DNA of 35,814 nt. Source: Escherichia phage P88. The position numbers and the translations under genes are program-made. The notes under the pieces are model-generated. The model worked only from the letters and a program-made list of their open reading frames with translations, made no database searches and was not told where the DNA came from. Below, in pieces: positions 15,143 through 33,332 of the stretch (positions are counted from its first letter, which is position 1; the number at the start of each line of letters is the position of its first letter). The DNA is taken from the sequence record NC_026014.1; one strand, written 5' to 3'.

Positions 15143-15164
15143 TAAGACAAAGGAGCAAATTTTT

Positions 15165-16217: not shown

Positions 16218-16262
16218 TCACCTCACGGCGGGCATCATGCCCGCCTGTAACGGAGAGAAAAA

Positions 16263-17063: not shown

Positions 17064-17155
17064 CGACTGACCCCGTCAGCGGGCGGCGTGCGCGGTGTTC
17101 CGGTTTGACTCCGTGACCGTTTACACCGCGCACCCACCGCCCGATTTTTTCAGGA

Positions 17156-17659: not shown

Positions 17660-17859
17660 TGAAAGTGAAGGCACTAGAAGGCGACACCGTGGATTCGCTC
17701 TGTTTCCGGTACTACGGCACGACGCAGGGCGTCACCGAAAAGGTGCTGGATGCCAACCCCGGACTCTGTCAGCAGGTATTTCTGGACGCCGGGCAGGAAG
17801 TTGAGATGCCGGAGCCGGAGAAGAAGAAACGAGAAATGATTCAGTTGTGGGGGGAGTAG
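17659..17859 (+). CDS. X: Tail protein X (LysM-like, P2 gpX-like)
   Basis: 66 aa from the ATG overlapping the L stop (TGATG); MKVKALEGDTVDSLCFRYYGTTQGVTEKVLDANPGL matches P2 X. Confidence 0.82.
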   Translation: MKVKALEGDTVDSLCFRYYGTTQGVTEKVLDANPGLCQQVFLDAGQEVEMPEPEKKKREMIQLWGE

Positions 17860-18185
17860 CAGTGAGCACCATTCAAACAGGGATCACAGAGCAGGTTATT
17901 GCGTGGCTCTTTGACCACCTGCCAACGGTGTATGCAGCAGGCGCGGCGGTCAGCATTTCCGCGCTGATGAGTCTTTATGACGGACGAACACTGGTTCAGA
18001 CCGTAACGGGATCGCTGGCGTGCGGCGTTCTTGCCATGGCCGTGGCCGGGTCGTTGCGCTTCTTCGGGTTTCCTGAAGATGCCGTGACGTTTATCGGCGC
18101 ATCAATCGGTTTTATGGGTGCAGAGAAAGCACGCGACAAGGTTATTGCGGCCTTTAATCGCAGGGTGAAGGAGAAGGACGAATGA
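17847..18185 (+). CDS. Y: Holin (P2 gpY-like)
   Basis: 112 aa with hydrophobic helices and charged C-terminus, immediately before the endolysin. Confidence 0.7.
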   Translation: MGGVAVSTIQTGITEQVIAWLFDHLPTVYAAGAAVSISALMSLYDGRTLVQTVTGSLACGVLAMAVAGSLRFFGFPEDAVTFIGASIGFMGAEKARDKVIAAFNRRVKEKDE

Positions 18186-18574
18186 GCAACACATTTAAAT
18201 TCAGCAGCCGGAGCGAAAAGAATTTGCAGGGCGTAAATCCTGATCTGGTGAAAGTGACCCGACGGGCACTGGAAATCTCGGAAGTGGATTTTGGTATCAC
18301 CGAAGGGTTGCGCAGCCGTTACCGCCAGAAGCAACTGGTGGCCACGGGTAAGAGCCAGACCATGAACAGCCGCCACCTTACGGGGCATGCCGTGGATGTT
18401 GTGGCTTATATCGGCAGCCAGGTGTCATGGGAATGGCCGCTGTACGAAAAAATCGCAGCAGCATTCAGACAGGCCAGCCGGGAACTGAATATTCCGGTGG
18501 AATGGGGCGGCGACTGGAAGACTCTGAAAGACGGACCGCATTTTCAGTTACCACACGGAGCCTATCCGGCATGA
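18182..18574 (+). CDS. Endolysin, peptidase M15-type zinc endopeptidase (not a P2 K-type lysozyme)
   Basis: 130 aa; SRHLTGHAVDV and WGGDW motifs fit the M15/VanY-like metallopeptidase fold; position between holin and spanins. Confidence 0.8.
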   Translation: MSNTFKFSSRSEKNLQGVNPDLVKVTRRALEISEVDFGITEGLRSRYRQKQLVATGKSQTMNSRHLTGHAVDVVAYIGSQVSWEWPLYEKIAAAFRQASRELNIPVEWGGDWKTLKDGPHFQLPHGAYPA

Positions 18575-18978
18575 AGCTCTGGCCCACGCTTGGCGTCGCT
18601 TTCCTTCTGATTGCCGGATGGGGAACATCCATGCGTCTGTCGTGGTCGCTGGGCCGGGAGAACGCCAGAAACGAAGCGCAGGCCAGCACCCTGAAAAGTA
18701 CCGCCGACACCCTGAATATCATCAGCGCCAGGGTACAGGATATGCAACAGGTGCTGGCGCAACTCCGCGTGGAAAATCAGCAACGCAATCAGGACGGAGA
18801 GGTAAGACGTGAACAGCTACGCAACGATATTGCAAAAGATGAATGCGCCCACGCTTTGCCTGACGCTCGTTTTACTGACAGGTTGCGCAGGCACGCAGAA
18901 CGCGCCACGGCCAGCGCCGTCAGTCCGGCTTATACCGCAGACGCTGACCATACCGGTAACGCCTCCCCCCTTCCCTAA
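18571..18978 (+). CDS. Inner-membrane spanin (Rz / LysB-like)
   Basis: 135 aa from the ATG overlapping the endolysin stop; N-terminal TM helix then charged coiled-coil region; o-spanin gene overlaps its 3' end in another frame. Confidence 0.7.
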   Translation: MKLWPTLGVAFLLIAGWGTSMRLSWSLGRENARNEAQASTLKSTADTLNIISARVQDMQQVLAQLRVENQQRNQDGEVRREQLRNDIAKDECAHALPDARFTDRLRRHAERATASAVSPAYTADADHTGNASPLP

Positions 18979-19129
18979 CACTCCCACATGGGGAAATCTC
19001 GGTATATGGGGCGACCGCCTTCTGGATGCACTGGAAACCTGTAACGCGGATAAACGGGCCATTGAATTACTGGAACAGCGCAGGCTGCAACGACTGAACA
19101 ACGAGGACAACAACCATGCTGAAAACTGA
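18809..19129 (+). CDS. Outer-membrane lipoprotein spanin (Rz1 / LysC-like)
   Basis: Signal peptide with lipobox LLTGC then Pro-rich region; alternative start at the internal ATG 18839. Confidence 0.65.
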   Translation: MNSYATILQKMNAPTLCLTLVLLTGCAGTQNAPRPAPSVRLIPQTLTIPVTPPPFPNTPTWGNLGIWGDRLLDALETCNADKRAIELLEQRRLQRLNNEDNNHAEN

Positions 19130-19583
19130 TTCCCTGCGTGAAGCCATGACCCGTTCATGCCGATGGTGTCAGGCCAACCCGGAAAAATTCACCATTTTCG
19201 TGGAGAGCGGCAACATTGAAACGACAGGAGAAACCCCATCGTTTGTTTACCGCTATCAGATGGTGATGTTTGTCATGGATTACGCCGGGGAGCTGGATGA
19301 CCTCACGCTGCCGCTGCTGGCGTGGTTATCCGAAAATCAGCCACAGTTGTTGCTCAACCCTGAGCGTAATCAGGACATCAAATTCTCCGCCGTTATCAAT
19401 GACGATGACAGCGCCGATCTCCTGTTTACGCTCCCCCTGCGGGAACGCGTTCGCATCACGCGCAGCAGTCAGGGCACACCGCAGGCAGAACACCTGCCGG
19501 AGCCAAAACCCCGCCTGCCCTCTTCCGAAGGCGACTGGTCGCATGTATTCCAGGATGTGACGTGGGGTGAAAGCGATGGATAA
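19116..19583 (+). CDS. R: Tail completion protein R (P2 gpR-like)
   Basis: 155 aa, same length and position as P2 R. Confidence 0.82.
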   Translation: MLKTDSLREAMTRSCRWCQANPEKFTIFVESGNIETTGETPSFVYRYQMVMFVMDYAGELDDLTLPLLAWLSENQPQLLLNPERNQDIKFSAVINDDDSADLLFTLPLRERVRITRSSQGTPQAEHLPEPKPRLPSSEGDWSHVFQDVTWGESDG

Positions 19584-20211
19584 GGCATTCACACGCGTGG
19601 ATGAAACCTTTGAGGCCATCCGCGACAGCCTGAATCAGCAGGCCATCAATAACATCGCCAGAAAGCTGGCACAGGATTTACGCCGCGCCCAGCAGGCGCG
19701 TATCCGGTCACAGAAAGCGCCGGACGGGACCGCGTGGACACCACGCAGACGCCGCGTAACCCGGATACAGGAACGCATTCGCTTTATCTGGAATAACGAA
19801 GCACGCACGCTGAAAAACTGGCATCACGACACGGGGAAATACGGGCGAACCATTACCGGGTGGGATGAGGATAAAAACAATATCCGCACGTTTTACCGGG
19901 ATGACATCGACCGTTTTCTGGAAATACGCACCCGGCGCATCAACCAGGACAGCACAAAGCGCGTCCCCATGTTCGTAAAACTGCGCACCGCCCGCTACCT
20001 GAAAGCCCGTGCAGATGCTTCCGGTGTGACGGTGGGTTACAGCGGCGTGGCCGCACGTATTGCCCGCGTTCATCAGTTCGGTGAGCGCGATCAGGTTGCG
20101 CCGGGCATTTTCACCGATTACCCGGTACGTGAGCTGCTGGGTATCAGCCAGGCAGATGAGCGCCTGATTTATAACACGGTGCTGGGCCGGATTGCGGAGG
20201 CTGTACGGTGA
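19567..20211 (+). CDS. S: Tail completion / virion morphogenesis protein S (P2 gpS-like)
   Basis: 214 aa, longer than P2 S (150 aa); position between R and V; start could be the ATG at 19576. Confidence 0.8.
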   Translation: MKAMDKAFTRVDETFEAIRDSLNQQAINNIARKLAQDLRRAQQARIRSQKAPDGTAWTPRRRRVTRIQERIRFIWNNEARTLKNWHHDTGKYGRTITGWDEDKNNIRTFYRDDIDRFLEIRTRRINQDSTKRVPMFVKLRTARYLKARADASGVTVGYSGVAARIARVHQFGERDQVAPGIFTDYPVRELLGISQADERLIYNTVLGRIAEAVR

Positions 20212-20789
20212 GCGCAGAACTCATGCGACTGCTGAGCAATATCATCCGCACCGGGATCATCTCTGAAGTTGATGAGAAGTCCTGGCGCGTGCGCGTTCGC
20301 AGCGGCGAACTGGAAACAGGCTGGTTGCGCTGGAACACCACGCGCGCGGGAGCCTTCAATGTGTGGCTGCCGCCATCACCAGGCGAACAGGTGGTAATTG
20401 CCTGCATTGGCGGCAACCCGGAAACCGCCATGATAATTGGCAGCCTGTGGAGTGATGCCAGTCCGGCACCCGGCAAAAGCCTGAAAGAAATCGTGATCAG
20501 CGCGCCGGACGGCGCGGTGTTCCGCTACGACGCGGACGCTGGCGCACTGAGCGCCAGCGGCATGAAAACGGCCACTTTACAGGCATCCGTCAGCGTGACA
20601 CTGGATACGCCCGTCGTGGAATGCACAAACCTTCTGAGAACGGCGACGCTTGACGTCACAAAAGGAGGAAAGATGAGCGGCAATATCACGCACAGCGGCG
20701 GCGACTTCACCTCAAACGGCATTACCGTGCATACGCATAAACACGGTGGCGTGAAAGGCGGCAGCGATTCGACAGGAGGCCCGCAGTGA
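20208..20789 (+). CDS. V: Baseplate spike/assembly protein V (P2 gpV-like)
   Basis: 193 aa; Gly-rich C-terminus HTHKHGGVKGGSDSTGGPQ typical of gpV spikes; overlaps S stop. Confidence 0.88.
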   Translation: MSAELMRLLSNIIRTGIISEVDEKSWRVRVRSGELETGWLRWNTTRAGAFNVWLPPSPGEQVVIACIGGNPETAMIIGSLWSDASPAPGKSLKEIVISAPDGAVFRYDADAGALSASGMKTATLQASVSVTLDTPVVECTNLLRTATLDVTKGGKMSGNITHSGGDFTSNGITVHTHKHGGVKGGSDSTGGPQ

Positions 20790-21136
20790 CAACCCGCTAC
20801 ACAGGAATGAATCCGGACGGGACGGGAAACCTGAACGATATGGAGCACCTGAAACAGTCAGTCAGGGATATCCTGACCACCCCGCTGGCAAGCCGGGTTA
20901 TGCGACGGGAATATGGCAGCCTTGTGCCTGATTTGATTGACGAACCCATGAATAACACCACGCGTCTGCAATGCATGAGTGCTGCCGTGATTGCGCTGAC
21001 ACGATGGGAACCCCGCATTGCCCTGGATGCCATCGACGTTGTCTGGAAAGCGGGAGGCCGCGCCGGGGTGACGCTGTCGGGCACTGTCATGCAGACCATG
21101 CAGAATGTTGAATTAACCATCACGCTAAGGGAGTAA
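20786..21136 (+). CDS. W: Baseplate wedge protein W (GPW/gp25 family)
   Basis: 116 aa; DMEHLKQSVRDILTTPLASRVMRREYGS matches the gp25/GPW family pattern. Confidence 0.88.
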   Translation: MTTRYTGMNPDGTGNLNDMEHLKQSVRDILTTPLASRVMRREYGSLVPDLIDEPMNNTTRLQCMSAAVIALTRWEPRIALDAIDVVWKAGGRAGVTLSGTVMQTMQNVELTITLRE

Positions 21137-21139
21137 ATC

Positions 21140-22036
21140 ATGCCCGCCGTTGACCTTTCACAGTTACCGGACCCCGCCATCATCGCGGAGCCTGACTTTG
21201 AGGCAATTCTGGCTGACACAAAGGCCATGATGATTGCGGCTTATCCCGCCGAACAGCATGAAGCCGTTTCCGCCGCGCTGGAGCTGGAATCGGAACCCCT
21301 TAACGTTATCGCTCAAACCATGTCGTTTCGTGAAATGCTGTTACGCCAGCGGGTTAACGAGGGGGCACGCGCCTGCATGTTAAGCCACAGCGCCGGGACA
21401 GACCTGGACAACCTCGCGGGCAATATGAACACAAAGCGCCTGGTTATCACTCCGGCAACGGATACCACCGACGCGGTGATGGAGAGCGACACCTCGCTGA
21501 GACTGCGGGCGCAGCGGGCGTACGACGGCCTGAGTGTTGCTGGCCCGTCAGGTGCATACGAGTATTTTGCCCGCAGCGCCAGCGGTCTGGTGCGTGATGC
21601 GCGGGCTATCAGTCCGTCTCCGGCAAATGTGACGGTTTCCATTCTGTCCACTGAAGGCGACGGCACAGCAACGGAGGCGTTGCTTAATACCGTTCGCGCC
21701 GTTCTGAATGCAGAGGACACCCGCCCGGTGGCCGACCGCCTGACCGTACAGAGCGCCAGCATCGTGACATGGCGGCTGAATGCAAAACTGTACTTTTACC
21801 CCGGTCCGGAATCCGAACCTATTCTGGCTGCGGCGGAATCGTCGTTCAGGAAGTGGCTGGCTGAGCAGGGGCTTATCGGTCAGGACGTGGCGTTGTCCGC
21901 CATTGCTGCCGCACTGCATGTGCACGGTGTGCAACGCGTGGAGATAATCGAACCCACACAGAATATGGCCATCAGCGACATACAGGCGGCGCGCTGTGAG
22001 TCATTCACCATCAGCGAAGGTGGGCGCAATGAGTAA
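21140..22036 (+). CDS. J: Baseplate protein J (P2 gpJ-like)
   Basis: 298 aa in the conserved W-J-I order. Confidence 0.88.
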   Translation: MPAVDLSQLPDPAIIAEPDFEAILADTKAMMIAAYPAEQHEAVSAALELESEPLNVIAQTMSFREMLLRQRVNEGARACMLSHSAGTDLDNLAGNMNTKRLVITPATDTTDAVMESDTSLRLRAQRAYDGLSVAGPSGAYEYFARSASGLVRDARAISPSPANVTVSILSTEGDGTATEALLNTVRAVLNAEDTRPVADRLTVQSASIVTWRLNAKLYFYPGPESEPILAAAESSFRKWLAEQGLIGQDVALSAIAAALHVHGVQRVEIIEPTQNMAISDIQAARCESFTISEGGRNE

Positions 22037-22559
22037 TTCGTTGTTACCACCATCAGCCAGCAATTTCATGCGTTGTGCCGAAGCCGTCGGAACACGCATT
22101 ACAGACATTCCGGTAGACCTCAACACACTGTGGTCGCCGGATACCTGCCCGGTGCACCTGCTGCCTTATCTCGCCTGGGCGTTTTCCGTTGACCGCTGGG
22201 ATCGCAACTGGCCGGAAGAGACAAAGCGACAGGTTATTCGTGATGCATGGCTGATACACCGACACAAAGGGACCATCAGCGCACTGCGCCGGGCCATTGA
22301 GCCGCTGGGATACCTCATTCGCGTGTCTGAGTGGTGGGAGTTCGGCGGAGAACCGGGAACATTTACCGTTGAAGTCGGCACGCTGGACAGTGGCGTGACG
22401 GAGGAAATGTATCTGGAAATGGAGCGGTTGATTGCTGATGCCCGCCCGGTCAGCCGCCACATGACAGGGCTGAATATCATTCAGGAAATTCCGGGGGATA
22501 TTTTCGCAGCGGCGGCAACTTATGACGGTGAAGTTATTACCATTTATCCAGGCGATTAA
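22029..22559 (+). CDS. I: Baseplate protein I (P2 gpI-like)
   Basis: Start at the internal ATG overlapping the J 3' end; WSPDTCPVHLLPYLAWAFSVDRWD...HRHKGTISALRRAIEPLGY...MERLIADARPVSRH parallels P2 gpI. Confidence 0.85.
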   Translation: MSNSLLPPSASNFMRCAEAVGTRITDIPVDLNTLWSPDTCPVHLLPYLAWAFSVDRWDRNWPEETKRQVIRDAWLIHRHKGTISALRRAIEPLGYLIRVSEWWEFGGEPGTFTVEVGTLDSGVTEEMYLEMERLIADARPVSRHMTGLNIIQEIPGDIFAAAATYDGEVITIYPGD

Positions 22560-22561
22560 GC

Positions 22562-24856
22562 ATGAGTACCACAACACGAAAATTTAAAACCGTTATCACC
22601 GATACGGGTGCAAAAAAATTAGCTCAGGCAGCCGCGCCAGATGGTAAGCCTGTCCGCCTGACTCATATGGCAGTGGGCGACGGTGGCGGCACGTTGCCCA
22701 CACCAGACAGTAAGCAGACCCGTCTGGTGCATGAGGTGTGGCGACATACTGTTAATCGCGTCATCCTGGACGCAACACATCAGAACCGCATTATTGCGGA
22801 GCTGGTTATTCCTCCTGAAACGGGCGGATTCTGGATCCGGGAAATTGGTGTATTTGATGAGCACGGCGATTTAATCGCGGTGGGAAATACTGCCGAAAGT
22901 TACAAGCCAGCCGTTGCCGAAGGGTCCGGTCGTGCACAAACATTTCGCACCATTCTGACCGTATCCAGCACTGCCACCGTGGCGCTTACCGTGGATAACA
23001 CCATGGTGATGGCCACAGTGGATTACGTGGATGACAAACTGAAAGAGCATGAACAGTCACGACGTCACCCGGACGCCTCGCTGACCGCAAAAGGCTTTGT
23101 TCAACTCAGTAGCGCCACTAACAGCGTGTCTGAAACGCAGGCTGCAACGCCGAAAGCAGTAAAGGCCGCGTATGATCTTGCTAACGGTAAATATACTGCG
23201 CAGGATGCCAGCACGACGCGAAAAGGCCTTGTCCAGCTCAGTAGCGCCACCAACAGCACGTCTGAAACGCAGGCTGCAACGCCGAAAGCAGTAAAGGCCG
23301 CGTATGACCTTGCTAACGCAAAATATACCGCTCAGGACGCTACGACGGCACAAAAAGGGATAGTCCAGCTCAGTAGTGCCACCAACAGCACGTCTGAAAC
23401 ACTGGCCGCGACATCGAAAGCGGTTAAGGCGGTAATGGATGAAACGAACAAGAAAGCGCCCTTAAACAGTCCTGCGTTGACCGGAACGCCAACAACGCCA
23501 ACTGCGCGACAGGGAACGAATAATACCCAAATCGCAAGCACGGCTTTCGTTATGGCTGCGATTGCCGCCCTTGTAGATTCGTCACCTGACGCACTGAATA
23601 CGCTGAACGAGTTAGCGGCGGCGCTGGGAAACGACCCGAATTTTGCGACCACCATGACTAACGCGCTTGCGGGTAAGCAACCGAAAGATGCCACCCTGAC
23701 GGCGCTGGCCGGGCTTGCTACTGCGGCAGACAAGTTTCCGTATTTTACGGGGAATGATGTCGCCAGCCTGGCAACCCTGACAAAAGTCGGGCGGGATATT
23801 CTTGCGAAATCGACCGTTGCTGCCGTTATCGAATACCTCGGTTTACAGGAAACGGTAAACAGGGCTGGTAACGCCGTGCAAAAAAATGGCGATACCTTAT
23901 CCGGTGGGCTTACTTTTGAAAACGACTCAATCCTTGCCTGGATTCGAAATACTGACTGGGCAAAGATTGGTTTTAAAAATGATGCCGATAGCGATACTGA
24001 TTCATACATGTGGTTTGAAACAGGCGACAACGGCAATGAATATTTCAAATGGAGAAGCAAACAAAGCACCACAACAAAAGACCTGATGAATCTTAAATGG
24101 GATGCTTTGTCTGTTCTTGTTAAAGCCCTTTTCAGCAGTGAAGTAAAAATATCGACAGTCAATGCACTGAGGATATTTAATTCATCTTTTGGTGCCATTT
24201 TTCGCCGTTCTGAAGAATGCCTGCATATCATCCCTACACGAGAGAATGAGGGGGAAAATGGCGATATAGGGCCGCTACGCCCCTTTACGCTTAATCTCAG
24301 AACTGGTCGCATAAATATGGGGCATGGTCTGGATGTTACAGGAGATATAACAACTAACGCATGGGTGTACGCAAACCGCCTTGCAATTAACAGCAGCACA
24401 GGCATGTGGATTCATATGCGTGACCAGAATGTTATTTTTGGACGTAATGCGGTATCCACTGATGGTGCTCAGGCTTTGCTCCGTCAGGACCATGCCGACC
24501 GCAAATTTATGATTGGCGGTCTGGGAAATAAGCAATTTGGCATCTACATGATTAATAACTCAAGGACAGCCAATGGCACCGATGGTCAGGCGTACATGGA
24601 CAATAACGGTAACTGGCTTTGCGGTGCGCAAATTATTCCCGGAAATTATGGCAATTTTGACTCACGCTATGTGAGAGATGTCCGACTTGGCACACGTGTT
24701 GTTCAATTGATGGCGCGTGGAGGGCGTTATGAAATAGCCGGACACGCACTTACCGGATTAAGGATTATTGGTGAAGTTGATGGCGATGATGAAGCTATCT
24801 TCAGGCCGATACAAAAATACATCAATGGCATATGGTATAACGTCGCACAGGTGTAA
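22562..24856 (+). CDS. H: Tail fibre protein H; C-terminal third lies in an invertible segment
   Basis: 764 aa; three tandem 44-aa fibre repeats; crossover site at residues 422-430 (VIEYLGLQE); C-terminal ...FRPIQKYINGIWYNVAQV. Confidence 0.93.
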   Translation: MSTTTRKFKTVITDTGAKKLAQAAAPDGKPVRLTHMAVGDGGGTLPTPDSKQTRLVHEVWRHTVNRVILDATHQNRIIAELVIPPETGGFWIREIGVFDEHGDLIAVGNTAESYKPAVAEGSGRAQTFRTILTVSSTATVALTVDNTMVMATVDYVDDKLKEHEQSRRHPDASLTAKGFVQLSSATNSVSETQAATPKAVKAAYDLANGKYTAQDASTTRKGLVQLSSATNSTSETQAATPKAVKAAYDLANAKYTAQDATTAQKGIVQLSSATNSTSETLAATSKAVKAVMDETNKKAPLNSPALTGTPTTPTARQGTNNTQIASTAFVMAAIAALVDSSPDALNTLNELAAALGNDPNFATTMTNALAGKQPKDATLTALAGLATAADKFPYFTGNDVASLATLTKVGRDILAKSTVAAVIEYLGLQETVNRAGNAVQKNGDTLSGGLTFENDSILAWIRNTDWAKIGFKNDADSDTDSYMWFETGDNGNEYFKWRSKQSTTTKDLMNLKWDALSVLVKALFSSEVKISTVNALRIFNSSFGAIFRRSEECLHIIPTRENEGENGDIGPLRPFTLNLRTGRINMGHGLDVTGDITTNAWVYANRLAINSSTGMWIHMRDQNVIFGRNAVSTDGAQALLRQDHADRKFMIGGLGNKQFGIYMINNSRTANGTDGQAYMDNNGNWLCGAQIIPGNYGNFDSRYVRDVRLGTRVVQLMARGGRYEIAGHALTGLRIIGEVDGDDEAIFRPIQKYINGIWYNVAQV
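23090..23440 (+). repeat. Tandem in-frame repeat, about 2.7 copies of 132 bp (44 aa) inside H
   Basis: Repeat unit KG(F/L/I)VQLSSATNS(V/T)SETQAATPKAVKAAYDLAN..YTAQDA occurs at residues 177, 221 and 265. Confidence 0.75.
23826..23851. repeat. Left crossover site of the invertible segment (gix/hix/cix-like, 26 bp)
   Basis: TTATCGAATACCTCGGTTTACAGGAA; near-exact inverted repeat of the site at 26897..26922 (23 of 26 after reverse-complementing). Confidence 0.75.
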
Positions 24857-24859
24857 ATT

Positions 24860-25387
24860 ATGCAGCATTTAAAAAATATTAAGTCTGGAAATCCAAAAAC
24901 AAAAGAACAATATCAGCTAACAAAGAATTTTGATGTTATCTGGTTATGGTCCGAAGACGGAAAAAACTGGTATGAGGAAGTGAAAAACTTTCAGCCAGAC
25001 ACAATAAAGATTGTTTACGATGCAAATAATATTATTGTCGCCATCACCAAAGATGCCTCCACGCTTAACCCTGAAGGTTATAGCGTCGTTGAGGTTCCTG
25101 ATATTACAGCTAATCGTCGTGCTGATGATTCCGGTAAGTGGATGTTTAAGGACGGAGCTGTGGTTAAACGGATTTATACGGCAGACGAGCAACAACAACA
25201 GGCCGAATCACAAAAGGCCGCGTTACTTTCCGAAGCAGAAAACGTTATTCAGCCACTGGAACGCGCTGTCAGGCTGAATATGGCGACGGATGAGGAACGC
25301 GCACGACTGGAGTCATGGGAACGCTATAGTGTTCTGGTCAGCCGTGTGGATACGGCAAATCCTGAATGGCCACAAAAGCCTGAATAA
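24860..25387 (+). CDS. G: Tail fibre assembly chaperone (P2 gpG-like)
   Basis: 175 aa immediately after H; N-terminal [24 protein letters not shown]... of the Tfa family. Confidence 0.9.
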
Positions 25388-25415
25388 AAATTAAGGCCCG
25401 ATAGCGGGCCTTGTT

Positions 25416-25949
25416 TCATTCTGGTTGTTCTGGAAACGTTACTGGCAGGCTGGAGGTGTCTGTGGATTCGACCTTCTGCGCATAGAGCATCCACTCGGTT
25501 AATTTTTGTTTATTCTCGTCGGGAATGATACCCAGCCGTAGCTGTGAGTCCCATAGCTGGGTTTTATCCCTGACAAGTTGCAACAGGCTTTGCTTTTCAT
25601 TCTCTGCCTGCTGCCTCTGTTCCTCCTCGGTATAAGTTCGCTTTATCACTACGCCATCTTTGAACATCCATTTACCCGAAATATCAGCCCGGCGATTTGC
25701 TGTAATATCAGGTAATTCAACGACGCTTGCGCCTTCCGGATTAATTGCTGAAACATCCTTTTCAATACAAATAATAACGCCGTTATGGTCATAGACCATT
25801 TTCAAAGTGTCTGGCTGGAAATTCTTTTGTTCCTCATACCAGTTTTTTCCATCATCTGAATAAAGCCATTTGATGTTAAATTGCTTTGTTAGCTGGTATT
25901 GCTCTTTTGTTTTAGGGTTGCCAGCAGTAATGTTTTTTAAGTGCATCAT
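25416..25949 (-). CDS. Alternative tail fibre assembly chaperone (G')
   Basis: 177 aa; N-terminal half almost identical to G, divergent C-terminal half; convergent with G. Confidence 0.9.
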   Translation of the reverse strand: MMHLKNITAGNPKTKEQYQLTKQFNIKWLYSDDGKNWYEEQKNFQPDTLKMVYDHNGVIICIEKDVSAINPEGASVVELPDITANRRADISGKWMFKDGVVIKRTYTEEEQRQQAENEKQSLLQLVRDKTQLWDSQLRLGIIPDENKQKLTEWMLYAQKVESTDTSSLPVTFPEQPE

Positions 25950-25951
25950 CG

Positions 25952-26914
25952 TTAAATACTCCCCGCGTTATACCACGTCCCATTAATGCAATACTGAATT
26001 GGCCTTGCCTGAGTTGTATCAATTAATTCATCACGGTTTCCGTTAACTGAACCCGTAACGACATAACCTGACCTGTCAGACCAGCCGGGGCCATTCCATG
26101 TCTGAACAGATGACAGACCGCCAAGGCGAATACCTGTAATAAACCTTGAGTTACATTCTGCCTGCGTGTATGCACCAACATCTCCCGCAGAGGGTTTGCG
26201 GGTCGTGGTGTAAAACTCTGACCAGTCAGCCTCAAATCCATAACCATCACGCGCTGAACGATAAAAAATACCGCCGTTCCTGTAATTCACGCGGAACTGT
26301 ACAGCAGGGCAGCTCCCCGTATTCATATTGAAGTGGAGGATTAATGTCGATGCGCCACCAATGTTTGCGTTATAGACCCCGCTATTCCAGTTCCAGCCAA
26401 CAGCTTTATCATTTCCGACAGTGCTTCCTGTTTGCCCTAAAGCAAATGCAGGTTGTTGATTTTTCGTGTTGTAGTCTCGTCGCCAGCCAGGAGCATAAGC
26501 ATCACCATGATTAATATAAGTGAATTGAGCGTTAGTAATTCCGCCACCGCTGGACGTGCTCGGCGTGGTAACGCGTATGGTCATTGCGCCGCGAGTGCCA
26601 ATAACTTCCACCACAGCACCTGCAAGACAAATATTTCCGCAACCTGTATCTGTAATGACCTTATTATTTGCATAAGCCCATGAGCCTTTGCACATCCAGT
26701 AAGGATGGTTAAATGCTCCCTGACTCTCCAGCCACGAAATAAATTGCGCGGTTGTCCAGACCTGACTATCGCCACCAATATTCAGCCATGCGCTATATGC
26801 GCGGCAGGCCCCAATATTTTTGGTGAAGGTATCTTTTCCCGGAATATCTGCGCCGTTCTGGTTTTTCTGTAATGCGCCAGAAGCCTGATTTACCGTTTCC
26901 TGTAAACCGAGGTT
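25952..26914 (-). other. Alternative tail-fibre C-terminal segment (Hv'), start-less, fused to H after inversion
   Basis: Minus-strand frame is open from the right crossover site; my translation reads NLGLQETVNQASGALQKNQNG... across the site, matching H at YLGLQETVNRAGNAVQKNG; ends ...RPIQYCINGTWYNAGSI like H. Confidence 0.75.
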
Positions 26915-26922
26915 TTAGATAA
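26897..26922. repeat. Right crossover site of the invertible segment (gix/hix/cix-like, 26 bp)
   Basis: TTCCTGTAAACCGAGGTTTTAGATAA, about 55 bp upstream of the invertase start; close to the Gin/Hin site consensus as I recall it. Confidence 0.75.
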
Positions 26923-26976
26923 TGGCCGTTTCTGACCTGCATGGCATGATTTACGCTTTTGGACGGGAGATTCAGC

Positions 26977-27564
26977 GTGCTGATTGGCTATGTAAGGGTA
27001 TCAACAAATGACCAGAATACAGACCTGCAACGAAACGCTCTTGTTTGTGCAGGATGTGAACAAATATTTGAAGATAAATTAAGCGGGACAAAGACAGACC
27101 GACCGGGATTAAAACGCGCTTTAAAGCGCCTTCAAAAAGGTGACACGCTGGTTGTCTGGAAACTGGATCGCCTCGGGCGAAGCATGAAACATCTGATTTC
27201 TCTCGTCGGGGAACTACGGGAGCGAGGGATTAATTTTCGCAGTCTGACCGACAGCATAGATACATCTTCTCCAATGGGGCGTTTTTTCTTCCACGTGATG
27301 GGTGCCCTGGCTGAAATGGAACGTGAATTAATTGTTGAACGTACACTGGCCGGACTGGCAGCAGCGCGCGCACGGGGGCGCACAGGCGGACGTCGCCCGA
27401 AGCTGACAAAAGAACAGCATGAGCAAATAGCAAGGCTGATTAAAAACGGTCACGACAGAAAACAACTGGCAATAATTTACGGCATTGGTACATCGACGAT
27501 TTATCGTTACCACCCCGCAGGAGAATCAAGCGGAACAATAGAGAAGAGTCAGAAAACAAAATAA
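26977..27564 (+). CDS. Serine DNA invertase (Gin/Cin/Pin/Hin family)
   Basis: From the GTG start the product begins MLIGYVRVSTNDQNTDLQRNAL... (catalytic Ser in VRVSTNDQ), near-identical to the Gin/Pin N-terminus as I recall; C-terminal HTH. The track ORF starts at a TTG at 26959. Confidence 0.9.
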   Translation: MLIGYVRVSTNDQNTDLQRNALVCAGCEQIFEDKLSGTKTDRPGLKRALKRLQKGDTLVVWKLDRLGRSMKHLISLVGELRERGINFRSLTDSIDTSSPMGRFFFHVMGALAEMERELIVERTLAGLAAARARGRTGGRRPKLTKEQHEQIARLIKNGHDRKQLAIIYGIGTSTIYRYHPAGESSGTIEKSQKTK

Positions 27565-27591
27565 CCGCTAATCTGACCATTAGCGGTTTTT
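27565..27591. terminator. Bidirectional intrinsic terminator between invertase and the tail operon
   Basis: Stem CCGCTAAT / ATTAGCGG, T-run on the plus side and A-rich tract upstream (U-run for the minus-strand transcript). Confidence 0.65.
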
Positions 27592-27599
27592 GTGTTAAA

Positions 27600-28094
27600 T
27601 CAGAACAGCCCTTTAACTGAACTGGCCGCGCTGTTAAGGGATGATGTCACCTTATCTTTGAAGCCGGACAGCATATCGCTGAACGATGAGGATTGCAGGC
27701 GCTCCCGCAAATCCTCATCACAGCGTTCAAGGGTCAGTGAAAATTCTATCTTTTTCGCCTTACCGTAGCGATCAAACTCGGAACGGGTCGTATTCGTTCC
27801 GGTCAGGACATACATGCCGTAAATCTGCCCGACGCCATCAATCAAAGGCCAGGGTCGTCCTGTATACGCCTGCGTGGTCAGCAGCGACAGCGACACTTCG
27901 CCACCTGTAATTTCAGGATAAAGCACACCAGAAAGAACGATGCGATCATCACCTGCACCGATATACTGCCAGCTTGCTGAACGGTTAACGCGTTCATTTT
28001 TCACATGCCGCCAGCTTTTGTTTTGCTGTAACTGCTGATGCGGCAGCGTGCGCAGCTCAAAAACAAACATGCCGTAGATCATCATCATGGCCAT
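27600..28094 (-). CDS. U: Tail protein U (P2 gpU-like)
   Basis: 164 aa; FVFELRTLPHQQLQQ...YPEITGGEVSL...PLIDGVGQIYGMYV...KIEFSLTL pattern of P2 U. Confidence 0.88.
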   Translation of the reverse strand: MAMMMIYGMFVFELRTLPHQQLQQNKSWRHVKNERVNRSASWQYIGAGDDRIVLSGVLYPEITGGEVSLSLLTTQAYTGRPWPLIDGVGQIYGMYVLTGTNTTRSEFDRYGKAKKIEFSLTLERCDEDLRERLQSSSFSDMLSGFKDKVTSSLNSAASSVKGLF

Positions 28095-28100
28095 GACTCC

Positions 28101-30944
28101 TCAATCTTTATCGTAAAAACTGCCACGCCCGGCACGGGCGCGCCGTTCCATTTCTGCCCTGACCATTTCACCGACCAGTTTCGCCAGTTCGCGGGGATTC
28201 TGTGTAACAACGTTATGCAGATGAACATGAATTTCACCGCCAAATCCGGAGGCAACAGGCTCCCGGTTACGGGAAGTTGCAGGAACTGATGCCACTGGCG
28301 ATCGTATGGCCTCTGCCACCGGGCGAGAGCTGGCCGCAACAACAGGGACCAGCGCCGGAGGCAGCGGAGCCGGAACCACAGGTGTGATATTAATTGCGGG
28401 GGCAGGCTTACTGACCTGCGCAATCTTCCGCTCCTGCCACTCCCCACGAACGGCAAGTGCGCGGGGCAGGTTCTTAAAGACAATATCGCCAGGGCCAATA
28501 CGTTTTTTCGTCTCATCAACCAGCTTACCTGTGTTATCAGCAATTTTGCTGAGTCTGCGTAGCGTACCGGTATTGCTGTCTGTGAGCGGTTTGTTGTCTT
28601 TGGGTTTATCACCTCCGGTGCCATTGCCATTTTCCACAGGCTTCGGCGGATTGATTTTCGCCAGGTCCCCCTGAAGCAAGGCAACCTTGTCCTGAAGAAT
28701 GGCCGCACGCTGTGCGTCTTCGATTTTCTTGCGCGCCCTTTCCGCTTCATCCGGAAGCACACCGAGCTTTTCAAGTATCCACGCCAGCGTATCCAGCAAC
28801 ATTTTTGCAGGTGTCAGAACAAGTTGTAACGCACCGCCAAGAACGTTACCGAATATCTCGCCAGCACTGGTACATTTATCCAGCGTTTCCTTGCTGGACT
28901 CCATCGGTGACAGCAGCGATTTAAACCAGTTAAACACCTGGCTGATCCCACTCCCGATTGCGTCAAAAACAGGACCAAACCGTTCAAAGGTTTCGCGCAA
29001 CGGGGTCAGCCTTTCCATAATCCCGCTGAACACCCCGGCAAAAAATGCCCTGATGGGATCCCAGTATTTCCAGATAAGAACGGCAGCTCCGGCAAGCGCA
29101 GCCACGATAAGACCAACCGGACTGAACAACGCCCCGATAGCGCCTCCCAGTAAAGAAACGGAACCCGTCACCATTCCCCACAGCGCAGGCAACACCCTGA
29201 CGACATTCATTGACCGGGTAAGAATGTCAAAACCAAGACGCAGGGTGGCCAGCTTCCCGTAAAGCACCCCAATAACCAGCGACAACGAGCCAATCGTTGC
29301 AGTCATTGCCAGCAGTGCACCGCCTGCAATCAGTAGCTGGCGCGTCAGTGCGGGATGGGCCTGCGCCAGCGCCGTCACCTTTGATACCACACGCGTGAGC
29401 CACTGCGTGACAGAACGCAGCGGACCGTCAATCAGATCTGCAATGCGGATGCGCAACCCTTCCCATGCACTGCTGAGTGATTTCAGATCGCCGTCAAGGT
29501 TGTTGGCCATAACCTTTGCCGTGCGTTCAGCCTCACCGCGCGCGCCTTCAAGTTCTTTTCTCAGTTTGGGTAAGGAGCCGTCACCTGCCGCATCAACGAG
29601 GGCCATAAATGATGTGAAAGCCTCTTCTCCGGCAATGTCCTTAAAGAACGATACCCGGTCAACTTCCCCGTATTTGCGGGTAGCTTTATAAAGGTCAGCC
29701 AGCACATCCTCCATCGGGCGCATTTTGCCCCCGGCATCCGAGACAGACACGCCAAGCTCTTTCAGCGCCTCTGCTGCCGCCTTTGGCGGTGATGCCAGAC
29801 GAGCCAGGCTGGCACGCATTGCCGTCCCGGCATCACTCCCTCTGATACCCATATTCGCCAGCACGCCCGCCATCGCTGCGGCCTGCTCCAGCGATATTCC
29901 CAGCTTACCCGCCACCGGACCTGCATATTTCATGGTTTCGCCCAGCGCGCGAAGGTCAGTGTTAGTACGGGTAAACGCTGCTGTAAGCGTGTCACCGACC
30001 CGGTCCATCTGGTCAGCGGAGAGGCCGAACTGCGTCAGGATATTTGAGCCAATATCCGCCGTCTCGCCAAGGTCCATACCGCCAGCCGTTGCCATGCTCA
30101 GCACGCCCGGAAGCGCAGCCTGAATGGCCTGCGGTGTGAAGCCAGCCATTGCAAGAAATGCCTGCCCACTGGCGGCATCGCCTGCGGTGAACTGCGTTTC
30201 AGAGCCAAGTTTTAACGCCTGCTCACGCAGCGCCTTAAACTGCGGGCTGTTTTTGTCGATTCGCGTCAGTGCCTGAACGCGGGACATCTCTTTCCCGAAC
30301 CCGATCGCAGGCTGCAAAAAACGCCCGGCAGCATAGCCGCCCGCCGCTGCCGCACCAATTGCCAGCGCACCACCTGTTTTCAGTTTTCCCGCTGTTTCCT
30401 GCGCGCGCGAATACCGCTCACGCGCCCGCGTTACACGCGCAAGCGCCTGCCGTTCGCGTTCAAGCTGGTTGTTGTATTGTTCGGTGCGTCTGATGGCCTG
30501 CTGGATGGTGTTATCGCTGCCTGTCAGGGAAATGCCGTGGCGTTTCAGCTCTCCGCCAAGCTCCCGCATTTTCTGAATTTCCCGTGTGCGCGATTCATTC
30601 AGGCGTTCAAGCCGGGTGCTTAACTGCTGCATCAGCTTTTGTTGTTTTTCGCTGAGCACTGTACCCGTGCGTTGTAACTGATTAAGGGCGTTAAGCTGGC
30701 GTCGTGCTTTCACGATACCCGCATCCGCTTTACTGACAGCGTCGCGGGCGCGCTCAAATGAACGCGCCTGACGCTCGAGATTTTTGATCGCCCCCTGCGT
30801 TCGCTGGATGGAGTCACCAAACTGCCCCATCAGGCGGCGTGCGTTTTCGGCAGGTCGGGTCAGCCTGTCAACGGCGCTGAAAGCGACCCGGATATCAAGA
30901 GTCTTCATTGTCTGCATTCCCGCTGCGAAGTGCCGCCCGCTCAC
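28101..30944 (-). CDS. T: Tail tape measure protein (P2 gpT-like)
   Basis: 947 aa; N-terminal coiled-coil, central Gly/Ala-rich hydrophobic segments, downstream of E/E'. Confidence 0.93.
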   Translation of the reverse strand: MSGRHFAAGMQTMKTLDIRVAFSAVDRLTRPAENARRLMGQFGDSIQRTQGAIKNLERQARSFERARDAVSKADAGIVKARRQLNALNQLQRTGTVLSEKQQKLMQQLSTRLERLNESRTREIQKMRELGGELKRHGISLTGSDNTIQQAIRRTEQYNNQLERERQALARVTRARERYSRAQETAGKLKTGGALAIGAAAAGGYAAGRFLQPAIGFGKEMSRVQALTRIDKNSPQFKALREQALKLGSETQFTAGDAASGQAFLAMAGFTPQAIQAALPGVLSMATAGGMDLGETADIGSNILTQFGLSADQMDRVGDTLTAAFTRTNTDLRALGETMKYAGPVAGKLGISLEQAAAMAGVLANMGIRGSDAGTAMRASLARLASPPKAAAEALKELGVSVSDAGGKMRPMEDVLADLYKATRKYGEVDRVSFFKDIAGEEAFTSFMALVDAAGDGSLPKLRKELEGARGEAERTAKVMANNLDGDLKSLSSAWEGLRIRIADLIDGPLRSVTQWLTRVVSKVTALAQAHPALTRQLLIAGGALLAMTATIGSLSLVIGVLYGKLATLRLGFDILTRSMNVVRVLPALWGMVTGSVSLLGGAIGALFSPVGLIVAALAGAAVLIWKYWDPIRAFFAGVFSGIMERLTPLRETFERFGPVFDAIGSGISQVFNWFKSLLSPMESSKETLDKCTSAGEIFGNVLGGALQLVLTPAKMLLDTLAWILEKLGVLPDEAERARKKIEDAQRAAILQDKVALLQGDLAKINPPKPVENGNGTGGDKPKDNKPLTDSNTGTLRRLSKIADNTGKLVDETKKRIGPGDIVFKNLPRALAVRGEWQERKIAQVSKPAPAINITPVVPAPLPPALVPVVAASSRPVAEAIRSPVASVPATSRNREPVASGFGGEIHVHLHNVVTQNPRELAKLVGEMVRAEMERRARAGRGSFYDKD

Positions 30945-31424
30945 GCCAGCTAACCACTTCGCCGGGCGTCATCATGAAGATTTCGGCGGGCGACCAGTTA
31001 AAAATAACGGCAATATCTGCCACAAAGTCTTCTATGTGCTCAAAGCACACAACCGTGATCAGGCTTCCGTCGCCTGTTCGTTCTTCCCGCCAGAGTCCGC
31101 ACCGCTCAAAAAATTTACGGCAACCACACATAACTGAATAAAGTCACGGGATGCCATTTTTTTGATCGTCACTTCATCCAGTCGCGGTGATGTCACGCGT
31201 GACAGCAGCGTAAACATGGATTCCGCTTTCAGACTCAGCACATCAGACAGCGACAAATCTCGCAGAGATCCAGCCTGCTCAATAGCCCCGGTGATCTCCA
31301 CATACGTGATTTTTTCGCCGCTTCGCTCAATTGGTTGGGTAAGTTTTACGCCACGCTCACTGGTTTCTTTCACAGTGTCAGTAACTACCGTGTTTTCGGT
31401 ATCGATGTTTTTCGTCTCTTTCAT
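30895..31424 (-). CDS. E+E' frameshift product (programmed -1 frameshift)
   Basis: The E' ORF (30895..31131) is in the -1 frame relative to E and overlaps the T start; shift expected at ATC-AAA-AAA-ATG as in P2 E/E' and lambda G/GT. Confidence 0.6.
31059..31424 (-). CDS. E: Tail assembly chaperone E (P2 gpE-like)
   Basis: 121 aa between tube gene and tape measure; slippery A7 run in the mRNA (plus-strand T7 at about 31157..31163) near its 3' end. Confidence 0.85.
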   Translation of the reverse strand: MKETKNIDTENTVVTDTVKETSERGVKLTQPIERSGEKITYVEITGAIEQAGSLRDLSLSDVLSLKAESMFTLLSRVTSPRLDEVTIKKMASRDFIQLCVVAVNFLSGADSGGKNEQATEA

Positions 31425-31478
31425 CAGGAAACTCCTTTCAGTCAGAGGCGACGCACTGCGCCGCCTGCATATTACTTA

Positions 31479-31991
31479 TCAGCCAAGCCCAAGCGCGGAA
31501 CGGATGCGATCGGGCACAATGTCCTTGCCGTCCTTCCGGTAAATGAAGTTCAGCAAGTCAATCTCCCACAACGGGCGATCGTTAACACTCAGCTTGTAGT
31601 AGGTGTTTTTAATGGCATAAGTGTGTGATGTGGCTTCGCCCTGTTTGGCTTCCCCCATATCAATTTCCGTCACACGTCCGCGCATTTCGACTTCATACAG
31701 GTCGCTTTCTGCATCGGTGTAGTATTCACCCGCAAAACGCAGCAGTGTGCCGTCAATCGTGCCGCCATACTTAAGGAACAGCTCACGAACTGCGCCCCCC
31801 ATGACAAAGCTCGCATCAAGCGCGGAGTCGTCCAGGCCGAGATCAATACTTACCGCCCCCATCATGCCACCACCCCGGTAGCTGTCGGTTTTGCGCGTCA
31901 GCTTAGGCAGAGTGACGGACGTCACCTTACCCACTTCGTTTTCACCATCCACAAACAGCGTAAAAAAGCGAAGATGTTTTGGCACAGCCAT
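31479..31991 (-). CDS. FII: Tail tube protein (P2 gpFII-like)
   Basis: 170 aa directly after the sheath gene (TGATG overlap). Confidence 0.92.
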   Translation of the reverse strand: MAVPKHLRFFTLFVDGENEVGKVTSVTLPKLTRKTDSYRGGGMMGAVSIDLGLDDSALDASFVMGGAVRELFLKYGGTIDGTLLRFAGEYYTDAESDLYEVEMRGRVTEIDMGEAKQGEATSHTYAIKNTYYKLSVNDRPLWEIDLLNFIYRKDGKDIVPDRIRSALGLG

Positions 31992-33175
31992 CAGGCACCT
32001 CCCAGCACCGCAAATGCGGGTTCAAAGTATTCATCAGTAAACGTCTGGTAAAGCTCCATGTCTTCCAGTGGCGGAACGGGCGTATATTTGTAGCGAATAC
32101 GCACACGTCCCTGACGTAAATCCGTGGTGCTGTTATCCACCACGTCATACCAGCACTCCGCGCCAATCAGTTTCCCGGCAGTAACCAGTGAATCCAGTTT
32201 TGCCCTGATGGCACTGATAACATCCTTCACGTTCGCAGGCGTCAGTGGACTGTCGATGGTTTCAAACTGCGCTTCCGCAATTGAATCAGCCAGCACCTGT
32301 GCGGTTCGGGTATACACCTCAAAGATGTAGGCGTTCGTTTCCGGTGTGCGGTTGCCCCAGAAGCGGAACCCGTTGCGACGAATAATGGTCGTGATTTCTT
32401 TGTTGTTGAGGCTGTTGGCATCGCTGTCTTCGGCCTGCAACGACCAGAACACATGCCTCGACATCCCCAGCACATTTTTAACCGGAACGTTGGACAGTGA
32501 TTTGTGCCATCCCTGCTCATGGTCAATGTACGCACGAAGGCCGCACGCATAGGCAGACGCGGGGAACGTTTCGTTTTTGCCACTTTTCGGGTTGTAGGCG
32601 ATGAAGTCCGGCCATAAGAGCATCACCTCACGTTCGTTGAATTTCTGGCGGTAGGTAATCGCCTCAGCCATCGTGTTACAGCCGTGACATGAGGCATACA
32701 CAAACGCGCGCAGTTTACCTGCAATCACGCACAGGGATTTTGTTACAGCCTCCGTGTCCAGCTCCGGCGCGGCCAGAATACGCGGACGGTATCCGATGCT
32801 TTCATCCTGCTCTGCAACAAGCAGCGCATACATCCCCGTATAGCTGCCGTCATCCTCAGAACCACCGATAACCAGTTGATCCTGCGTCTTTCCGTCTTCT
32901 TCTTTGTGTTCAGCCACGCGAACGACGATCACCTTTGTGCTCACCTGGTCTGCGATGGCCTTAAGCGCACGATAAAGCGTCCCCGTTGTCCCGCATTTTC
33001 CCAGCACGTCATTGACGCGGGTCAGCAGTGTGGGCTTGTTCAGCGGGAACAGCTTCGCGTCCGCATCATCCGCCGTTGCCACGATACCGATAACGCTGGA
33101 ATCAACATCGTTAATCGCTGTTACCAGGTCGGTATTTTCCGTAACACGGGCACCATGAAAACGAGTTTCACTCAT
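31991..33175 (-). CDS. FI: Contractile tail sheath protein (P2 gpFI-like)
   Basis: 394 aa, P2 FI-like size; first gene of the sheath-tube-chaperone-tape measure operon. Confidence 0.93.
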   Translation of the reverse strand: MSETRFHGARVTENTDLVTAINDVDSSVIGIVATADDADAKLFPLNKPTLLTRVNDVLGKCGTTGTLYRALKAIADQVSTKVIVVRVAEHKEEDGKTQDQLVIGGSEDDGSYTGMYALLVAEQDESIGYRPRILAAPELDTEAVTKSLCVIAGKLRAFVYASCHGCNTMAEAITYRQKFNEREVMLLWPDFIAYNPKSGKNETFPASAYACGLRAYIDHEQGWHKSLSNVPVKNVLGMSRHVFWSLQAEDSDANSLNNKEITTIIRRNGFRFWGNRTPETNAYIFEVYTRTAQVLADSIAEAQFETIDSPLTPANVKDVISAIRAKLDSLVTAGKLIGAECWYDVVDNSTTDLRQGRVRIRYKYTPVPPLEDMELYQTFTDEYFEPAFAVLGGA

Positions 33176-33332
33176 AGCTTCAGCCCCTTGTATCCGTTAA
33201 ATGATTCGGCAACAATCATCACCCACCACGCGCGTAATCTCACCCCTGCGCCGTTCTCCCGCCACGGCGACAACAAAAAGCAGTAACCCCCTCCGCACGC
33301 ACATGCGACCATGCCGCACAGGGAGGGAACAG
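33176..33332. promoter_or_regulatory. Divergent intergenic region between FI and D (expected late promoters)
   Basis: 157-bp gap between divergently transcribed FI and D; D has a GGGAGGGA SD. No promoter consensus verified. Confidence 0.3.

Follow-up and report, generated by a model that had tools for sequence, protein, structure and literature searches.

The tail fibre gene H of Escherichia phage P88 raises the question of whether its 3' end is carried on a DNA segment that is inverted by a recombinase encoded next to it. The whole sequence NC_026014.1 (35,814 nucleotides, hereafter the window) was analysed, and the results made it very probable that H of this P88-like prophage contains an active inversion switch of the Gin/Cin type (Din family), which is essentially the G segment of Mu and D108. 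Neither an invertase nor inversion is mentioned in the paper describing P88 (PMC5285337).

By sequence comparison, the backbone is that of a prophage of Xuanwuvirus (P88-like Peduoviridae). About 80% of positions 1-22000 of the window matched Citrobacter phage Shae_phiSM and Escherichia phage PhiR44_2 at approximately 97% identity, and the backbones of these two phages, Xuanwuvirus P884B11 and E. coli prophages were 95-98% identical to that of P88. Pfam analysis detected GPA, GpU, Phage_tube, sheath and GPD, and the P2-type set of structural and replication genes was collinear with the classified members, including the reversed FI-U tail block. Prophages of the P88-like type were present in about 900 of the 5,426 complete E. 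coli genomes. The relatives share the layout of P88, namely H, a chaperone gene, a second chaperone gene (chaperone'), an invertase gene, and then the reversed gpU and tape measure genes; the tips that they carry vary among the members, and the "DNA invertase" is already annotated in their GenBank records. The reversed FI-U block (27600-33175) was also considered as a product of the invertase and was rejected, being flanked by neither an inverted repeat nor a gix-like site. As the reversal is common to all relatives, it was regarded as a fixed feature of the genus.

Crossover sites and alternative fibre tips

The whole 35.8 kb was searched for the Mu gix consensus TTATCNAAAACCTCGGTTTACAGGAA with up to three mismatches, using 100 shuffled sequences as a control. 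Only two sites were detected, one at 23826-23851 on the plus strand with one mismatch and the other at 26897-26922 on the minus strand with none, and no gix-type site appeared in the 100 shuffles. The left site (gixL-like) reads TTATCGAATACC TC GGTTTACAGGAA with the core TC at 23838-23839, and the right site (gixR-like) reads TTATCTAAAACC TC GGTTTACAGGAA, the same sequence as the right site of D108. The original prediction that 26-bp sites lie inverted around a 3.1-kb segment was borne out, with a site-to-site span of 3,097 bp, although the two sites were not perfect copies of each other; they agreed at 24 of 26 positions and differed at positions 6 and 9 in the outer half-site. Each consists of 12-bp half-sites around the shared, asymmetric and identical 2-bp core, in agreement with the 26-bp recombination site defined by Johnson & Simon 1985, as cited in PMC3798978. 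The perfect inverted stretch was 25 nt in length (23835-23859 and 26889-26913), located within a 65-nt inverted repeat with 78% complementarity.

The alignment with gix proposed along with the prediction showed matches at 24-25 of 26 positions per site (1-2 mismatches) and the same TC core. The two differences of the left site from Mu gix were both in the outer half-site. The left site had the same sequence in four related prophages and coincided exactly with the start of the DNA similarity to Mu/D108. Shae_phiSM and U90 have TTATTTAAAACC TC GGTTTACGAGAA as the right site. Multi-inversion systems such as shufflons, Min or the three-repeat locus of EPEC have at least three crossover sites and more than two arrangements, and true shufflons use the tyrosine recombinase Rci. 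A system of this type was ruled out for P88, as a looser scan of the window with up to six mismatches found no third crossover site and the recombinase was a serine enzyme.

The left site divides the ORF of H (22562-24856) into two parts. The constant N-terminal part (22562-23839, plus strand) comprises 426 codons, ends at the crossover dinucleotide, and contains the Pfam Phage_tail_fib N-terminal domain followed by three Phage_fiber_2 repeats; it was collinear with the P88-like prophages at 96-98% identity. The variable C-terminus that is now expressed, Sv (23840-24856, plus strand), was similar to the Mu tail fibre protein S (PDB 5YVQ_A, E = 8e-145), with protein identities of 77.5% to S of P1, 72.6% to S of D108 and 68.4% to S of Mu. 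As Sv differed from Mu S in the middle part and at the extreme C-terminus, its receptor may not be the one recognized by Mu G(+).

Sv is followed by the gene for its chaperone U (24860-25387, plus strand), equivalent to G of P2, which matched Caudo_TAP (5e-38) and Mu U (PDB 5YVQ_B, 2e-109) and was 100% identical to U of D108 at the protein level. On the opposite strand, the chaperone U' of the alternative tip (25416-25949, minus strand) matched Caudo_TAP at 6e-36 and showed 99.4% protein identity to D108 U'. Between the two convergent chaperone genes, a hairpin at 25392-25413 had terminator-like features on both strands, and terminators are annotated at the equivalent position in the D108 record. 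The silent alternative C-terminus Sv' (25952-26908, minus strand) was similar to Mu S/S' (PDB 8JU3, E = 8e-221) and 99.3% identical to D108 S' at the protein level. Convergent alternative C-termini with one chaperone each had been predicted here, and the two Caudo_TAP proteins and the matches of the tips to Mu S and S' agreed with this layout, as did the comparison of both tips with proteins of known structure.

The minus-strand frame of Sv' was inspected for an interruption before the crossover. It was intact, being open over the 318 codons between the crossover and its stop codon just above 25952. The sole stop near the crossover in this frame was a TAA within the outer half-site, which is never joined to the constant part. 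Indeed, inversion in silico generated an uninterrupted fibre of 744 amino acids, as compared with 764 amino acids in the present orientation, confirming that the alternative tip joins constant H in frame at the crossover. The convergent alternative 3' exons, joined in frame at the crossover, are the layout of the Mu G segment.

The invertase and its presumed enhancer

A serine DNA invertase of 195 amino acids is encoded at 26977-27564 on the plus strand. It contained the Pfam domains Resolvase (1e-50) and HTH_7 (9e-14) and matched Gin (PDB 4M6F/3UJ3) with E = 1e-100, which confirmed the expected invertase directly downstream of the segment; the gene starts 54 bp past the right site. The most likely start codon is the GTG at 26977, giving the same N-terminus as in Gin (MLIGYVRVST), and the upstream TTG at 26959 was set aside. 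A bidirectional terminator hairpin at 27563-27588, detected as an inverted repeat and in the terminator scan, separates the invertase gene from the convergent gpU gene. At the threshold of the scan, the region upstream of the invertase gene contained no consensus sigma-70 promoter.

Residues 1-125 were 97.6% identical to Mu Gin, in contrast to only 59% for residues 126-181, which form the DNA-binding domain. Judged from this comparison, the enzyme is a hybrid of a Gin-like catalytic domain and a divergent DNA-binding domain. The protein was a small serine recombinase with a C-terminal HTH, as in the Din family. Its catalytic serine Ser9, the role of which has been described (PMC3575834), was aligned with that of Gin, and Met114 was of the wild type; the Fis-independent mutant carries the substitution M114V (PMC3575834). 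Helix 1 of the DNA-binding domain kept the Q..RL motif (EQIARL), proposed to contact Fis (PMC3798978). As the DNA-binding domain has only 59% identity to Gin, the affinity of the enzyme for the sites at 23826-23851 and 26897-26922 is a prediction, and the same applies to its activity in the P88 element.

The Fis-dependent recombinational enhancer presumably lies early in the invertase gene at 26995-27066 (plus strand), corresponding to nucleotides 19-90 of the gene, the position at which the Cin enhancer is annotated in the P1 record. This stretch was identical to Mu gin at 72 of 72 positions and to P1 cin at 55 of 72, and the identity to Mu gin extended over nucleotides 1-110. The presumed enhancer sequence is present in cis in the 5' region of the gene, the arrangement found in the Din family; judging by its title, the study of Kahmann et al. 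1985 (cited in PMC3798978) located the Mu site within the invertase gene. In the search for individual Fis sites, 15-mers of the form G-N13-C occurred at nucleotides 22 and 71 of the gene. Binding of Fis to the enhancer and a need for Fis in the inversion are predicted, the indirect evidence being the wild-type Met114 and the retained Q..RL motif.

Both orientations in nature and competing explanations

Natural inversions of the segment were found in sibling prophages of E. coli with identical sites. In strain PEC399, the segment was inverted exactly from site to site with 99.8% identity to the window, and the collinear flanks were 96.6-97.0% identical. In strain E110019, two versions of this locus, one in the chromosome and one in an alternative contig labelled "extrachromosomal", differed only by a clean inversion of 3,097 bp, and the inversion sites were identical to both sites of the window. 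Among the complete E. coli genomes, 356 contained the junction of the window state and 126 contained the junction predicted for the inverted state.

An inverted repeat formed by chance between duplicated convergent fibre genes, without site-specific recombination, was refuted and retained practically no probability. Convergent paralogous genes do give rise to inverted repeats, three of which were present in the window; nevertheless, the shuffles yielded no site at all (0/100), the two sites agreed with gix in 24-25 of 26 positions and had an identical core, and the breakpoints of the natural inversions in PEC399 and E110019 fell exactly on them. As Gin, Cin, Pin and Hin complement one another, the invertase could alternatively serve mainly another target, acting in trans on Din-type segments of the host or a co-resident prophage with the fibre segment as a bystander. 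Kutsukake et al., as listed among the references of PMC4272514, bears on this idea. We considered it very unlikely, as the invertase gene is only 54 bp away from a site of its own and contains the enhancer in cis, the canonical local arrangement, and as action in trans would supplement the local inversion, not substitute for it.

The switch might also be a relic, an inherited architecture that no longer flips here and leaves the fibre permanently S-like. Possible causes are a lack of expression of the invertase, whose DNA-binding domain is divergent, or its poor binding to the altered left half-site. The lack of a detectable consensus promoter upstream of its gene, the two deviations of the left outer half-site from Mu gix and the low identity of the DNA-binding domain to that of Gin (59%) would agree with such a loss. 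On the other hand, all ORFs were intact, even the silent exon of 318 codons, the catalytic domain was nearly identical and the enhancer stretch identical to Mu gin, both junction types were common among genomes, and E110019, with the same two site sequences, showed both states in one assembly. Loss of function was thus judged improbable, and an active switch was the preferred explanation.

In the active switch, dimers of the invertase would bind both 26-bp sites, and host Fis on the enhancer within the 5'-terminal region of the invertase gene would promote synapsis of the sites. Cutting at the central TC followed by strand exchange would then flip the 3.07-kb interior. The 426 constant codons of H would be continued by the Mu S-like tip, followed by chaperone U, in the present orientation, and by the in-frame Mu S'-like tip, followed by U', after inversion. 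As either tip can be fused to constant H, a lysogenic culture should release particles with two different, presumably LPS-binding tips. The orientation of the segment would thereby set the receptor-binding tip of the induced phage.

The main value of these results is in annotation. The silent exon at 25952-26908 is probably a functional alternative tip, not a pseudogene, and RefSeq labels the counterparts of Sv' as "incomplete, missing N-terminus". Assemblers can also be misled, as in E110019, where the flipped orientation entered the database as a record of its own. For the prediction or engineering of host range, two specificities should be assumed for P88-like prophages with the cassette.

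Relation to known inversion systems

The G segment of Mu/D108 (Muvirus) has the same order of site, Sv, U, U', Sv', site and invertase, and the DNA identity was 93-96% from the left site to nucleotide 356 of the invertase gene (23826-27332). The constant part differs, as Sc of Mu has 170 codons whereas P88 has a P2-type H of 426 codons with Phage_tail_fib and fibre repeats. Other differences are the DNA-binding domain of the invertase (59% identity to Gin), the tip Sv, which has 68-73% protein identity to S of Mu/D108 and is mosaic with no DNA match at 24128-24380, and the region downstream, where P88 carries the reversed tail module and lacks com/mom. Over Sv, U, U' and Sv', the C segment of P1/P7 had a DNA identity of 90-94%, and Cin was 74% identical to the P88 invertase; in P1, however, cin lies on the opposite side of the segment and the core of cix is TT, in contrast to TC in P88. 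Within the P88-like group, Shae_phiSM and U90 had no DNA match to 26412-26901, the 5' part of Sv'. PhiSM, the closest phage relative, for which only "a predicted DNA invertase" was mentioned (PMC6456863), requires the LPS outer-core GlcIII (waaR) on K-12 (PMC6456863), a requirement consistent with an LPS-binding tip of the Mu S type.

The cassette of fibre tips and invertase may be a module that unrelated temperate phages (Mu-like, P1-like and P88-like) continue to exchange, anchored on the left site and the ultra-conserved 5' end of the invertase gene with the enhancer; we regard this as an even chance. The similarity to D108, which begins exactly at the left site and ends inside the invertase gene at 27332, the hybrid invertase, and the higher identity of the PEC399 segment (99.8%) than of its flanks (about 97%) fit such swapping. 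Fibre genes have long been known to be mosaic, and such swapping, if true, would add to this only incrementally.

As predicted, canonical P2 lacks the switch: the gene order after G in NC_001895 continues with Z/fun and FI, an invertase is absent, and nothing resembling gix was found at 15000-30500. The other Din systems (Cin of P1/P7, Pin of e14 and Hin of Salmonella) resemble P88 in having 26-bp sites, a serine invertase and, within its gene, a Fis-dependent enhancer; Hin of Salmonella flips a promoter, whereas the P88 segment flips fibre exons. The current understanding of DNA invertases is unchanged by the P88 switch, which is of a well-known kind and has precedents in P2-like prophages of E. 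coli, where inversion was demonstrated experimentally (PMC4272514). In the P2-like prophages of EPEC E2348/69, fibre C-termini are inverted by Hin-like invertases, and the phase variation was shown by paired-end sequencing and PCR (Goldberg et al. 2014, PMC4272514). Of the two EPEC loci, one is a simple two-state switch like that of P88, and the other has four states and three inverted repeats (PMC4272514), in contrast to the two sites of P88.

Crossover sites and reading frames

An inverted repeat of 65 nt with 78% complementarity (23822-23886 versus 26862-26926) was detected by the repeat finder, and a search with the consensus of gix, the crossover site of phage Mu, returned exactly two sites, at 23826-23851 on the plus strand and 26897-26922 on the minus strand. 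The plus-strand arm reads TTATCGAATACC-TC-GGTTTACAGGAA and the minus-strand arm reads TTATCTAAAACC-TC-GGTTTACAGGAA. These sites were alike at 24 of 26 positions, with a longest perfect shared stretch of 25 nt (23835-23859 and 26889-26913). None of 100 shuffles gave a gix-type site, and allowing six mismatches added no third site in the window. The sites were thus the 26-bp inverted pair of the original prediction, and the distance of 3,097 bp from left to right agreed with its 3.1-kb segment.

The ORF listing gave the gene layout. The tail-fibre gene H (764 aa, 22562-24856) and a 175-aa ORF (24860-25387) lie on the plus strand, followed by a 177-aa ORF (25416-25949) and the silent tip (end at 25952) on the minus strand, and by a further plus-strand ORF with its end at 27564. 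Across the left site, the H frame translates as ...V A A V I E Y L G L Q E T V N R A G..., and the minus-strand frame entered at the right site gives I I * N L G L Q E T V N Q A S G... The latter remains open for 318 codons past the right site and ends at a stop just above 25952; the sole stop codon on entering lies in the outer half-site, outside the inverted DNA. Indeed, inversion of 23840-26908 in silico produced an uninterrupted fibre of 744 aa with the first 426 residues unchanged, so that the in-frame joining of the alternative segment to the constant part of H, as originally predicted, held at the crossover site. The alternative chaperone starts 2 nt past the alternative fibre stop, and the plus-strand pair is spaced alike.

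Fibre tips, chaperones and the invertase

Pfam analysis of H detected a Phage_tail_fib N-terminal domain and three Phage_fiber_2 repeats, and both the 175-aa and 177-aa ORFs were Caudo_TAP chaperones. Among solved structures, the expressed tip matched the Mu tail fibre protein S (5YVQ_A, 8e-145), its chaperone Mu U (5YVQ_B, 2e-109), and the silent tip the Mu S/S' construct 8JU3 (8e-221), in agreement with the alternative C-termini and chaperones that had been proposed. Protein identity to the counterparts of the Mu-like phage D108 was 100% for the expressed chaperone U, 99.4% for the silent U' and 99.3% for the silent tip Sv'. The expressed tip Sv showed 77.5%, 72.6% and 68.4% identity to the S proteins of P1, D108 and Mu, respectively; overall it was nearer to P1 S than to Mu S, in contrast to the remaining three genes in the segment, which were 99-100% D108-like. 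The tip gene is a mosaic, in which 24128-24380 and the last ~50 H codons (about 24700-24856) diverge from Mu/D108 S and the flanking DNA is 93-96% identical to Mu/D108. As the expressed tip departed from Mu S in the middle part and the extreme C-terminus, its exact receptor may be other than that of Mu S. The Mu record links S to host range, and PhiSM, the closest phage relative, requires LPS GlcIII on K-12 (PMC6456863); from these two phages we infer that the tips in the window would determine host specificity.

The constant part of H contains three tandem 132-nt (44-codon) repeats at 23089-23484, which match the reference copy at 100%, 86% and 61% identity and correspond to the three Phage_fiber_2 repeats. 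P1 gene S carries an annotated 132-bp 'repeated element a1', and H length varies in relatives (809 aa in U90 and 672 aa in PhiSM). The silent fibre exon of related prophages is listed in RefSeq as a pseudogene ('incomplete; missing N-terminus'; L003 14353-15372, L004 14413-15123 and L008 11952-12971); the exon is functional, its N-terminus being supplied when the segment inverts.

The ORF ending at 27564 contained Resolvase and HTH_7 domains and matched the Gin structures 4M6F and 3UJ3 at 1e-100 with Ser9 aligned, confirming the serine invertase expected downstream. Protein identity to Gin was 97.6% over residues 1-125 and 59% over residues 126-181, and overall identity to Cin, the P1 invertase, was 74%. 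As DNA similarity to Mu/D108 gin ends at 27332, leaving a divergent remainder (27333-27564), the invertase is a hybrid, with a catalytic domain almost identical to Gin and a DNA-binding domain common to other P88-like prophages and only 59% identical to Gin. In the P1 record, nt 19-90 of cin are marked as the Cin enhancer, and the Mu enhancer is placed within the invertase gene by Kahmann et al. (1985), as cited in PMC3798978. Nucleotides 1-110 of the invertase gene (from GTG 26977) were identical to Mu gin, and the enhancer-equivalent stretch was identical at 72/72 positions to Mu and 55/72 to P1. Met114 was kept; the M114V substitution makes Gin Fis-independent (PMC3575834). The Q..RL residues of helix 1 in the DNA-binding domain were retained as well (EQIARL); Fis-dependent invertases share these residues, which are a proposed contact with Fis (PMC3798978).

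The canonical Din-family reaction is the best-supported reading of this switch. Invertase dimers would bind both sites and assemble with the Fis-bound enhancer, Ser9 would cleave at the TC core, one dimer pair would turn 180 degrees, and the strands would be religated, exchanging the 3' end of H and its following chaperone.

Both orientations in related prophages

The predicted inverted left junction was built and searched against complete E. coli genomes. It was contiguous in 126 of them, with a best match of 100% over 600 bp; the junction as in the window was present in 356. In strain PEC399, the flanks were collinear with the window (96.6-97.0% identity) and 23822-26926 was inverted (99.8%). 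The chromosome of strain E110019 has the segment in the window's orientation, and an 'extrachromosomal' linear record of 25.4 kb contains the same prophage end with the chromosomal genes flk and yfcJ. Comparison of NZ_CP035755.1 with NZ_CP035751.1 (3144857-3170296) revealed a clean 3,097-bp inversion between sites identical to those of the window; the four mismatches in the inverted block corresponded to the differences between left and right sites, and the remaining differences were all indels. These records are best read as two orientation states in one sequenced culture. Rather than a replicon, the 25.4-kb record represents the prophage end of the chromosome, with flk and yfcJ, assembled in a second way and differing from the chromosome by the fibre inversion and indel errors. 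Phase variation at P2-like prophage loci of EPEC E2348/69 has been demonstrated by sequencing and PCR (PMC4272514), and a survey of phage hotspots mentions DNA invertases as frequent at this P2-like locus (bioRxiv 10.1101/2024.10.15.618418).

Relation to P2, Mu and D108

As a whole, the window represents a complete prophage related to P2, with Pfam matches to integrase (108-1139), gpA, gpU, tape measure protein, tube, sheath and gpD. Some 80% of the first 22 kb aligned with Escherichia phage PhiR44_2 and Citrobacter phage Shae_phiSM at ~97% identity, and the aligning half of this region matched Xuanwuvirus P884B11 at 97.7%; all three are P88-like Peduoviridae. A 9.8-kb structural stretch was at least 80% covered in 902 of 5,426 complete E. 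coli genomes; as the best identity was 98.7%, this genome set does not include the window's exact source. A variable cargo region (8676-10903) separates gene A (replication) from the portal gene. In the window it contains an actin-type segregation ATPase resembling ParM (8856-9815), a small protein bearing a zinc finger of the ClpX type (10195-10527) and a 112-aa ORF that lacks Pfam matches (10524-10862); in the E110019 relative, this position is occupied instead by a Dam methylase and an AAA ATPase.

In P2, G is followed by Z/fun and then FI, and this region contained neither an invertase nor a gix-like site, consistent with the predicted absence of the switch from canonical P2. While P2 carries FI-FII-E-T-U-D downstream of G, all on one strand with G, the window has gpU, tape measure, E/E', tube FII and sheath FI reversed (27600-33175, minus strand) beside gpD still on the plus strand (33201-34433). 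Neither an inverted repeat nor a gix-like site was found at the flanks of the reversed block, an arrangement common to all P88-like relatives. In the GenBank entries of PhiR44_2, Shae_phiSM and P884B11, a DNA invertase is already listed, flanked by two fibre-assembly genes and a reversed gpU.

The original observation was borne out, its reading as a Gin/Cin-type switch is supported, and the window's own copy is predicted to be active. DNA similarity to Mu/D108 starts precisely at the left site, and 23826-27332 showed 93-96% identity to their invertible G segment and the 5' part of gin, the deposited records being collinear with the window in the order S, U, U', S', gin. The element belongs to a textbook system, with near-identical copies in hundreds of genomes and in annotated phage records.
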